Shown here: positions 8,904 through 14,984 of the stretch, one piece after another
Position numbering within the stretch: the first letter of the stretch is position 1
How the letters are laid out: every line of letters starts with the position of its first letter
Assembly (NCBI GenBank): GCA_951406725.2
Contig: OX597831.1
Coordinates: 65,534,001 to 65,598,000, forward strand
Reading direction: 5' to 3'
Source: Octopus vulgaris
Lineage: Eukaryota
Length of the DNA: 64,000 nucleotides
Program-made: the position numbers and the translations under genes
Notes under the pieces: generated by a model
What the model saw: only the letters and a program-made list of their open reading frames with translations
The model's database searches: none
Told to the model about the DNA's origin: nothing

Positions 8904-9399
8904 AGGTTCAATCCTACTGCGTTCCACCTAGGGCACATGTTCTCTGCTATAGTCTCGGCCCAACCAAAGCCTTGCGAGTGGATTTGGTAGACGGAACCCC
9001 CTCACCGCTTGACAACCGGTGTTGGTGTGTTTACGTCCCCGTAGCCTAGCAGTTCAGCAAAAGAGTCCGATAGAATAAGTACCAGTAGCTTTAAAAATAA
9101 GTACTGGTTTTTATTCCCATTCGACTAAGATTCTTCAAGGCGGTGCCCCAGCATGGCCGCAGTCTAATGACTGAAGTAAAAAGATATATATATATATATA
9201 TATATATAGGAATTTATCTATCAGGTTGAGTAAAACGCAAGCAACGTTTTGAACCACAAAAAATTTGTAATGGAGTTTTGCAGAATTAAAAATGTTTTAA
9301 ATAATGTTTTTGCACTTGACTGATTATACAGACATAGAATTGTTCAAATGCATCAATAAATTAACATTGATTTTTTTTCACCGTTATTACAATCATCTG

Positions 9400-11283
9400 G
9401 ACCGGCTTGTTCGTGATGTTGTTTGTGCGTCGTTAGAGAGGTTAGTGAAGCATTGTTGAATTAGAATTATTTTTGTTATTAATTGCTGCCTTACGGTAGT
9501 TTTGTTAACGTTGTCCACCTTGTTTCAAGGAGGAAGCGCATAAATTGTGTCTTCATGATGTCTGAAGATTTGGATTCTTCAGACGTAACGATGTCTGAAA
9601 AAGAATTACCGAGAAATTTGGATATTGCAGACCAGAAGATGGAAAAAAATCAAGGTGGAAAAAAAATAATGAATTTTGCAGTTGCGGCTGGTGAAAGAAG
9701 AAAAGATTTGTTTTAAGAAGATGGAGTTGAACAAGTACAAAGAAATCCTGCGAAGAGAAGGGCACAAAGTAAAGGTGACCCCTCCTAGTGAAGTTACAAA
9801 GGGCACACAAAAAAGGCAATTATGTATAGAATGTATAATCTGGATGCAAAGAGAATGGAGATAGTAAAAAAACCACAAGTTGAGAAAGCATTGAGACCCA
9901 TCTGGCAGGATGTCACCTACCTTGCCAGAGGGAGGAAATACGCAACTGTGGAGGTCCAATTTGCATCCTAGGAAAAGGCCAGACAACATTCGGTAGCCTC
10001 CTTGAAAACGGACGAGGTAATACTTTTGCTTACTTATCATGGAAAGCTGCTTCCAGGGTAAGGGTGGAAGAGATTCCTGCGGACGTAAATGTCGCCTGGC
10101 TGGTGACCGCAATACTACTGGATGTAGAACAGAAGATAGAGGTCCTCCAAGTAACGTGAACGCCACCGAAGAATTGGCAAGGGCAGACCTTGAAGATAAT
10201 CATGCGGGCTGCCCCGGAAGACCTTGAAAGAATGGTCGACACCATAACGGTGGGTGAGGAGGTGGTATTAAGAGTTATAGTGGTGGGCAGGAAGCCCCGA
10301 TATTATAAATGTGGCCAGAAGGGCCACATAAGAGGGGAATGCTCTCCACCGATCACAAAGACACCATCAGTACTACAGGTCCGAAGGAAAATCGCCCCTC
10401 TACCTCCTGCAATGACAAGTGGTACAGGAGGGAGTGTGGAGAAGCCCGGCAAGGAGACACAAATTGAGGAGAGAAAAGGGAAGAATGGAAGACGGTAAGC
10501 TGGAAAAAGAGAACTCAGGATATTGATGTTACCCCACACATCCAACCCCCACTCCGCCAGACTCTGCCTTATCCTCCCCCCCGCAAGAAAACCAACCCTC
10601 ACCCTATCCCACCAAACACTGATACTAAAGCTACAAACACGCAGGAGCCCCATAATTTCCCAACTTCAACCCTATGAAAAAAGTTGTATTGTTTCTTTTG
10701 CAATGAGTCACTTGATGAGTTGTGCGATGAAATAAACAATGTGGACGAATTGATAAAAGTCGATATTGAAGGATGTGGGGGAGTGCCCTCGCAAGTTAAA
10801 TGTGTATTAATGGAGAGAAAGAACTCACAAAGATTACGCGAGGATTACGGGAGAAATGTCATTATCTCATCAACTTTTTCAAGTTTCACTTGAAAAGGAA
10901 GATGAGAGTAGAGTGGGAAGTGCTGTCTGGTAGCAAGTTTATTGAAAGGTGGGTGAATGTCGCAAGAATGGTCAGCATGAACGGACCAATTCTGAGGATA
11001 CACCTGTAAAAAAAGATTAAAAGGAAATATAAAAAGAGAAAGGGGCTCTCTACCCCCCTTTTGACCAGGCTCCCGTGGCTTTTATGGGTTTTTCCACGAG
11101 TAAACTTTCGAAGTGCTTCCTCCTATTGGGAGTTTTAATTGTTACTTACATTTTGTTGTTATCCTTCTTTTGTACACGGACTTTTTTCAAACGGACAAAA
11201 CCCTTTGTAACTTTCGTCCTGTGTTTTGTCCCTTTATGTTTTAATTGATTTTTGTTAGCCCTTGTGGCCAATAAATGAACGAA
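9400..11283 (+). mobile_element. Non-autonomous Tx1/L1-type retroelement: gag-like ORF1 pseudogene plus ORF2 C-terminal tip
   Basis: Frameshifted ORF1 with decayed CCHC knuckle YKCGQKGHIRGEC. FFKFHLKRKMRVEWEVLSGSKFIERW resembles the Tx1 ORF2 end. 3' end gcccttgtggccaataaa. Confidence 0.7.
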
Positions 11284-11561
11284 TTATCTCACAAAAGGAA
11301 ATTGATACCAGAGGAGTGCAGTCAACGGTAAGCTATCATAAGCTTTTAAAAGAAATTAACACGGACATAGTAAGTGTTTAATTGCTTTTTTAAAAAGTTT
11401 CAATGAGATCACTTGGATTGTGGGGTCCGAGTGGCCTTCATTTCATCCATTCATTTTTTATACCACCCTTCTCATTCGTTTAATCTTTTCCCCCACTTCT
11501 GTGTTTTTGTCCATCTTTGTACTGTCCCTCTATGTTAAGCACCATGTGGACAATAAAAAAT
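11284..11561 (+). mobile_element. 5'-truncated related retroelement (3' end only)
   Basis: Pyrimidine-rich 3' UTR ending ctctatgttaagcaccatgtggacaataaaaaat, directly followed by the target copy cgttgttacaatcatct. Confidence 0.6.
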
Positions 11562-11578
11562 CGTTGTTACAATCATCT

Positions 11579-13626: not shown

Positions 13627-13646
13627 CGCTGTTACAATCATCTGAA

Positions 13647-14485
13647 ATGGCGCTGTCAAAGCGCGATATTCGAGCAACTTCAAAAAAGGACGTCATTGAG
13701 AAAGACCCACGTAAACCCACTCGAGAACTGGCAAAAGAACTTCAAGTTAGCCAGAAAACTACCTGCAACCATTTGCATGCGATCGGAAAATCAAAAAACT
13801 CGACAAATGGGTACCACACGATTTGAATGAAAATCAGAAAATGCGCAGATATGAAATTTGCTCTTCATTTCTCCGTAACTAGACCGATCCATTTCTTGAC
13901 TGTATTGTAACTTGCGATGAAAAGTGGATTCTGTAGATAAGAAATGTTCTTCGCAGTGGTTGGACCAAAATGGAGCATCGAAAACCTCTCAATCCGAGCT
14001 CTTTGAAATGTAGGTTATGGTGACTGTTTGGTAGTGTACTGCTGGACTCATCCACTATAACTTCTTAAAACCCGGAAAAACCATTACTGCAGAAACATTG
14101 CCATGAAATTGCGTAAATGAACGAAAAACTGCTACTTCTCTGTCCCAGACTGGTCAACAGAAGAGGGCCAATTATTCTTCATGACAATGCTCGTGTCATT
14201 CTTCATGACAATTCTCGACCACACGTTTCACTAATGACGCTCCAGAAGTTGAGGGAACTTGGCTACGAAGTGCTCTCCTCAGACCTTTCTCCTATCGACT
14301 ACCACTTTTTCAAGCACCTTGGAGGTTTCCTGCGAGAGGAGTTCAAAAATCAAACCGATGCTGAAAGTGCGTTCAAAGAATTCATCAGCTTCAGAACTCC
14401 AGATTTTTATGTTACCGGAATAAACAAACTTGTAACTCATTGGCAAAAATGTGTTGATTGTAATGGTACTTACTTTGATGAATAA
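13647..14485 (+). pseudogene. Mariner transposase pseudogene
   Basis: [53 protein letters not shown], with stops and frameshifts. Confidence 0.92.
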
Positions 14486-14984
14486 AATTTCTGCATTGTT
14501 GAAATATATTGTGATGAATTTCATGTTTCAAAACGTTGCTTACTTAATTACTCAGCCTGACACACACACACACACACACACACACACACACACACACACA
14601 CACACACACACACACACACACACACACACACACACACACACACACACACACACACACACACACACACACACACATATATATATGTATATACATATGTATG
14701 TGCGTGTGTATATATATATATGTATATATATATATATATATATATATATATATATATATATATATATATTATGGCTTAATGGCTTCCTAGATTCCAAGCT
14801 AAGATATATATATATATATATATATATATACATACATACATACATACATACATACATACATATATACATACATATATACATACATATATATATATATATA
14901 TATATATATATATTTTCGTTTTTGGATTTGGTTTTCAAAATTCTTTATATGAGTTCGTGTGTTGAAGCATATTCTATTGAGTCT

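Follow-up and report, generated by a model that had tools for sequence, protein, structure and literature searches.

Insertion of LINE-type elements at fixed sites in DNA transposons is already documented in two vertebrate groups, crocodilians and frogs. In his 2015 study of crocodilian genomes, Kojima found that 313 of 347 near-full SINEU-3 copies were flanked by the mariner Mariner-N4_AMi, described a Tx1-Mar group of LINEs, and reported tandem SINEU-3 copies that sandwich a 16-bp target duplication in the mariner (PMC4494074). A family is treated there as target-specific when more than 20% of its copies are flanked by the same repeat (PMC4494074). In Xenopus, the LINE Tx1L inserts sequence-specifically into the DNA transposon Tx1D (PMC4494074, PMC1950540). 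LINEs of the APE type insert by target-primed reverse transcription, and the endonuclease of Tx1L nicks its own Tx1D target almost exclusively (PMC1950540). ORF1-only LINEs have been described separately: HAL1, HeT-A and Ag-Sponge, which belong to the L1, Jockey and CR1 clades, carry an ORF1 5′ part and a LINE 3′ end and are missing ORF2 (PMC5786205). For the octopus itself, a repeat annotation of O. vulgaris lists 80 L1-Tx1 and 362 Tc1-mariner families, and the parts of that paper that were searched use neither the word “target” nor the word “nested” (PMC13282606).

Here we analyze a locus of this kind in 64,000 nucleotides of octopus-type DNA (hereafter, the window). With moderate confidence, we read it as two half-LINEs, each with ORF1 only, and a LINE 3′ end that entered a now decayed mariner in two or three separate target-primed insertions, carried out in trans by an L1/Tx1-type ORF2 with a preference for a 17-bp word. 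The initial annotation had raised the prospect of an undescribed transposon-targeting system; as a concept this is not new, since Tx1-Mar and SINEU-3 in Mariner-N4_AMi, complete with tandem copies sandwiching the target, are published (PMC4494074), and our locus is like them in having LINE-type elements in a mariner, several families at the same site and a target of about 16 bp sandwiched between the passengers. The pattern is real and no product of chance, and it is well accounted for as a likely cephalopod case of what is known from these crocodilian and frog LINEs. What is new here is the cephalopod host, the ORF1-only passengers and the sense insertion before the start codon. The Tx1-Mar sites lie near position 240 (antisense) and near position 830 (sense) of a non-autonomous mariner, whereas the insertions described here match neither position, being in sense at bases 161-178, just before the transposase ATG (PMC4494074). 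The SINEU-3 passengers are snRNA-derived SINEs, unlike the ORF1-only passengers found in this octopus-type genome, and the crocodilian preference was demonstrated on hundreds of copies, as against one locus here (PMC4494074). Compared with the frog case, Tx1D is described as piggyBac-derived and Tx1L brings its own endonuclease, whereas the present locus contains none (PMC4494074, PMC1950540). In the searchable literature we found no description of a mariner targeted by a LINE in a cephalopod; Repbase and subscription papers, which fall outside that scope, may record one. A motif match in PMC6011040 lay inside unrelated coding sequence and was set aside. Searches with the junction itself gave no occurrence of the target-plus-ATG pattern in viral contigs or prokaryote genomes, and its one match in metagenome contigs proved to be unrelated sequence; the tail pattern was likewise absent from viral contigs, and the mariner left arm from plasmids.

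The host element is bounded by a pair of terminal inverted repeats (TIRs). Its left arm (9221-9381, + strand) consists of the left TIR (9221-9256) and the 5′ leader, and its right TIR occupies 14524-14560 on the − strand; the two TIRs are 84% alike over 37 bp. A TA flanks the left end, and the right end runs into a CA repeat. Between them, the decayed transposase gene (13647-14485, +) matches Transposase_1 (E 4e-11) and, weakly, HTH domains, so that both the TIRs and the transposase identify the element as a mariner. The gene has suffered frameshifts, stops, internal deletions and one 24-bp duplication. DD34D is the standard mariner spacing; in the decayed frame 29 residues separate the last two Asp, which would give that spacing if five codons have been lost. 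When the insert of 4,245 bases, counted from the end of the first target copy to that of the third, was removed in silico, the remainder was a decayed mariner, 1,095 bp long, in which the ATG is at position 182. Downstream of the element, a second mariner-type right end (15462-15495, −), 94% like 14526-14560 and lacking the rest of the element, adjoins a duplicated block (14996-15402 / 15516-15988).

The 17-bp word occurs three times on the + strand, at 9382-9398, 11562-11578 and 13627-13643, with pairwise differences of 1, 1 and 2. The triplicated word, together with the 1,095-bp mariner left after removal of the insert, gives the insert the layout of nested target-site duplications, with the word lying in the mariner leader; we infer that the empty mariner held it once. 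These observations bear out the mariner TIRs and 4.2-kb insert reported in the initial annotation and adjust several of its details. It had given the thrice-repeated target as 18 bp; the three copies stand, but the 18th base, a G, is common to the first and third copies only. It had put the transposase start codon 3 nt after the last copy, and the ATG at 13647 does open the mariner-type frame, with the copy ending 4 bases before it. Finally, the remnant it had noted (aattatct, 11282-11289) is supported in an extended form at 11280-11289 (+), where the first 2 and last 8 target bases are preserved, with 1 mismatch and 7 bases missing relative to the full word. This remnant pattern occurs once in 128 kb (both strands of the window), directly behind the tail of the first passenger, although it is a post hoc pattern, chosen after it had been seen; it is a probable collapsed fourth copy of the target and could also be chance or junction microhomology. 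Across both strands of the window, only the three intact places come within 3 mismatches of the word, and 9 places come within 4. At every intact junction the word starts and ends identically, and its length agrees with the target duplications of roughly 16 bp that mark the Tx1 clade.

The copies of the word separate three passengers, all arranged head-to-tail in the sense direction of the mariner. Unit A (9399-11279, +; 1.9 kb) is an ORF1-only LINE-like element with a broken ORF1 at about 9558-10860, in which we recognize two predicted RRMs, a CCHC knuckle (a weak zf-CCHC match) and part of a C-terminal domain reaching to 10860; the profile of its protein family, introduced below, matches it within 9721-10396 (E 3e-31 and 4e-36). 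After ORF1 come a short, possibly coding tail (10861-11009), which reads as an open frame and may resemble the end of a LINE ORF2, and a T-rich 3′ end with an AATAAA and no poly(A). A protein word-index search with this tail gave no match. Unit B (11290-11561, +) is a 272-bp 3′ end of a LINE-like element. Unit C (11579-13626, +; 2.0 kb) is again an ORF1-only LINE-like element, with a broken ORF1 extending to about 13335 (family profile E 1e-53; zf-CCHC E 1e-4) and a 3′ tail that it has in common with a SINE. An inverted 37-bp copy (12203-12239, 92%) of 12402-12438 sits at a frameshift in this ORF1. Each of the three units ends in a T-rich tract, a GTGG motif and an AATAAA or variant, which finishes 4-6 bases before the junction, and none has a poly(A).

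In protein alignments of A with C, three blocks hold 20/48, 23/67 and 12/28 identical residues (34-43%); at the DNA level these two units show no similarity (best local score 30), and their 3′ ends compared alone were not significant, with 5 of 200 shuffles reaching the score. Unit B is related to the 3′ end of C (local alignment score 121.5, against 61 in the best of 200 shuffles) and more weakly to that of A (75.5 versus 57). The 17-mers are thus far more alike than the units they bound. If the structure had arisen by tandem duplication of one element, the DNA-level relationship of B and C would be accounted for, but the absence of DNA similarity between A and C, next to 17-mers differing by 1-2 bases, contradicts it; as for chance repeats, a complex 12-mer was present three times in only 1 of 1000 Markov-shuffled versions of 9221-14400. 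We give hardly any credence to either.

Searched against 1.84 billion protein representatives, the main frame of unit C had 76 matches, 5 of which are unrelated multi-knuckle proteins and were rejected. Among 20 matches that were looked up, one was the window's own, and all 11 with a species name were octopods (Octopus bimaculoides, O. vulgaris, O. sinensis and Argonauta hians), which makes it probable that the window is octopus DNA. A profile of 41 relatives matches both A (E 4e-36) and C (E 1e-53). In a structural model of one relative (mean pLDDT 78), two RRM-type domains precede the CCHC knuckle, and the best fold match of that model was a La RRM (Z 9.4, rmsd 2.3, 80 residues). The fold matches listed include no solved LINE ORF1, the PDB sequence search returned zinc knuckles only, and a protein atlas had no match for a piece of unit C; for one relative, the atlas gave CCHC clusters and a ZCCHC3-like RNA-binding cluster at 0.90, which we treat as a lead only. 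Units A and C hold broken genes of this octopod family, whose predicted tandem RRM with a zinc knuckle is of the LINE ORF1 type. The combination of RRM and CCHC corresponds to the Type I ORF1 of L1/Tx1 elements (PMC5203782); here the CCHC is recognized by Pfam and the tandem RRM is predicted in a family member, and the type also occurs in other clades. Several relatives lie on contigs of 1.7-2.2 kb, near unit length, although short contigs are common anyway. One public gene model, 89 residues long, matches part of the unit C ORF1 (12632-12901) without a difference, so that here a piece of a transposon has been annotated as a gene; further relatives likewise carry host-gene annotations, and one is fused into an RGS gene model.

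No endonuclease, reverse transcriptase or ORF2 is encoded in units A, B or C. From the end of the ORF1 match to the 3′ end there are only about 420 bases in A and about 290 in C, which leaves no room for an endonuclease and a reverse transcriptase. The units accordingly lack what defines an autonomous LINE; A and C are half-LINEs, with the HAL1-like layout of an ORF1 and a LINE 3′ end and no ORF2. Domain scans of 75 of the 76 matches showed no reverse transcriptase, endonuclease or transposase domain, and word-index searches with the A tail, an A ORF1 piece and the family alignment, which are weak negatives, returned no autonomous partner or longer relative. Because no endonuclease or reverse transcriptase partner was found, our placement in the L1/Tx1 group draws on the ORF1 type and the length of the duplication. 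Elsewhere in the window are a Penelope-like remnant (16442-17877, −) with a GIY-YIG match (E 2e-4) and a weak reverse transcriptase match, and an open frame (26471-26950, +) that has no Pfam match and presumably resembles the end of a LINE ORF2.

How many insertions took place depends on the A/B junction, as two would leave three target copies and three would leave four. We regard three events as likely. Under the alternative, C inserted once and A and B arrived together as a chimera, with the reverse transcriptase copying the B 3′ end and then jumping to the 3′ end of the A RNA. Two events predict exactly the three intact target copies seen, and the remnant between A and B is without 7 of the 17 bases; the same remnant nevertheless keeps the first 2 and last 8 target bases directly behind the A tail, a pattern found at that one place, and we consider the chimera unlikely. 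The differences among the copies do not fix the order of the insertions. The initial annotation had described three diverged elements from independent families hitting one site repeatedly. Divergence holds for A and C, and repeated separate insertion is retained, as is its expectation that the three units would not align as one tandem duplicate; “three families” overstates the case, because B is a fragment related to C, the two form one lineage, and A and B could be a single event.

The window offers an internal comparison, as it contains a SINE whose last 30-60 bases are almost the same as those of unit C, and which therefore probably used the same or a sister machinery. One SINE array (4851-5264, +), made up of a head and two bodies with C-type tails, is enclosed by a 16-bp duplication; another (3698-4239, −) has a head, two C-tailed bodies and one body with another tail. 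A further C-tailed SINE (61104-61315, −) is flanked by a target duplication of 18 bp that bears no relation to the mariner word. SINE heads leading into such arrays were seen in 2 of the 7 examined in the window. The bodies are 89-94% identical and no closer within arrays than between loci, so that, on their sequences, separate insertions fit better than recent duplication. Five C-tailed SINE 3′ junctions are present in the window, and none continues into the mariner word. Three of them, within SINE arrays, all occupy one internal position of the SINE body; of the remaining two, the outer 16-bp duplication resembles that internal site and the 18-bp one resembles neither. The SINE copies cut both ways for the reading we favor. 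Their 16- and 18-bp duplications are of the same size class as the 17-bp word and support a machinery whose insertions create duplications of 16-18 bp and pile up at preferred sites; at the two copies with a recognizable outer duplication, however, the target differs from the mariner word, in one case wholly, and this speaks against a preference confined to the mariner word. The preference for (ATC)n or ATCRTCT-like sites suggested in the initial annotation is not favored either, given that SINE copies with the C tail run on into other sequences.

Two further readings turn on these junctions. The machinery may prefer a short, widespread motif, [C/G]GT and then T[A/G]TT or ATT, that the mariner merely contains, with stacking as a consequence of the duplication made at every insertion. 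Both the mariner word and the SINE site open in this way, a weak hint of a shared motif, and four of the five C-tailed SINE 3′ junctions (three of the four inside SINE arrays) begin GGTATT, close to the CGTTRTT of the mariner word. The fifth junction, at 61104, fits neither form, the motif derives from only a few sites that are not independent of one another, and both ends of the 17-mer were reused exactly. This reading is a narrower form of our preferred explanation rather than its opposite, and we hold it as a tentative but serious possibility. Alternatively, the word could be the elements' own 3′ end or read-through RNA, with the first copy marking an extremely truncated insertion or homology-guided priming. 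The tails without poly(A), and the AATAAA or variant 4-6 bases before the junction, are what one would expect on this account, as cleavage at the usual poly(A) distance would probably put the end of a transcript within the flanking word. SINEs with a near-identical C tail are not followed by the word, however, and the first copy lies where the length of the mariner's own leader would place it, which makes this account highly unlikely. In an Rfam search the target matched no RNA gene; all 19 matches fell in microsatellites at 5696-7871.

By rough arithmetic, a LINE-rich genome could by chance have been hit twice at the same base somewhere; that both ends of the word were reused, probably on three occasions, is more readily explained by sequence preference. 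Under the favored explanation of trans insertion at the 17-bp word, the ORF2 of an unseen autonomous partner would have bound the tail common to each RNA and made two nicks, one in the bottom strand at the word's upstream boundary and one in the top strand 17 bases further along. With every insertion the target would have been renewed on both sides, so that the next could stack at the same spot. Unit B would have been cut short at its 5′ end, with damage to its upstream target duplicate; the mariner ORF would thereby have been pushed 4.2 kb from its leader, and all parts would have decayed afterwards.

A broader scenario, which we think decidedly unlikely, is that an old L1/Tx1-type octopus lineage makes tail-less transcripts that end in the flanking target and home back to it, the half-LINEs to the mariner leader, with the promoter borrowed and the transposase turned off, and the same-tail SINE to its own body. 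With AATAAA 4-6 bases before the junction, such transcripts would extend into the target copy and might base-pair with a further target, and the mariner leader could supply the promoter; transcription from the flanking mariner and co-transcription with the target are discussed for the crocodilian elements (PMC4494074). As to age, 8 of 24 sequencing runs, under 4 organism labels and from 5 studies, hold at least half of the sampled words, though one of them may be the source of the sequence. As the mariner arms make up about a fifth of the stretch, those 8 runs must also hold much of the insert, and this word content suggests an old, shared locus.

The evidence comes from one locus only, and one decayed locus is a lead rather than a demonstration. 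If the pattern is family-wide, transposon-targeting LINEs would be extended from frogs and crocodilians to molluscs, and ORF1-only passengers would be added to the transposon-targeting group. The same tail, found in a mariner leader in one setting and in a SINE body in the other, would then provide a natural set of targets for asking whether the endonuclease or the 3′ flank of the RNA chooses the site. A LINE landing between a mariner's leader and its ATG would also suppress that transposon.
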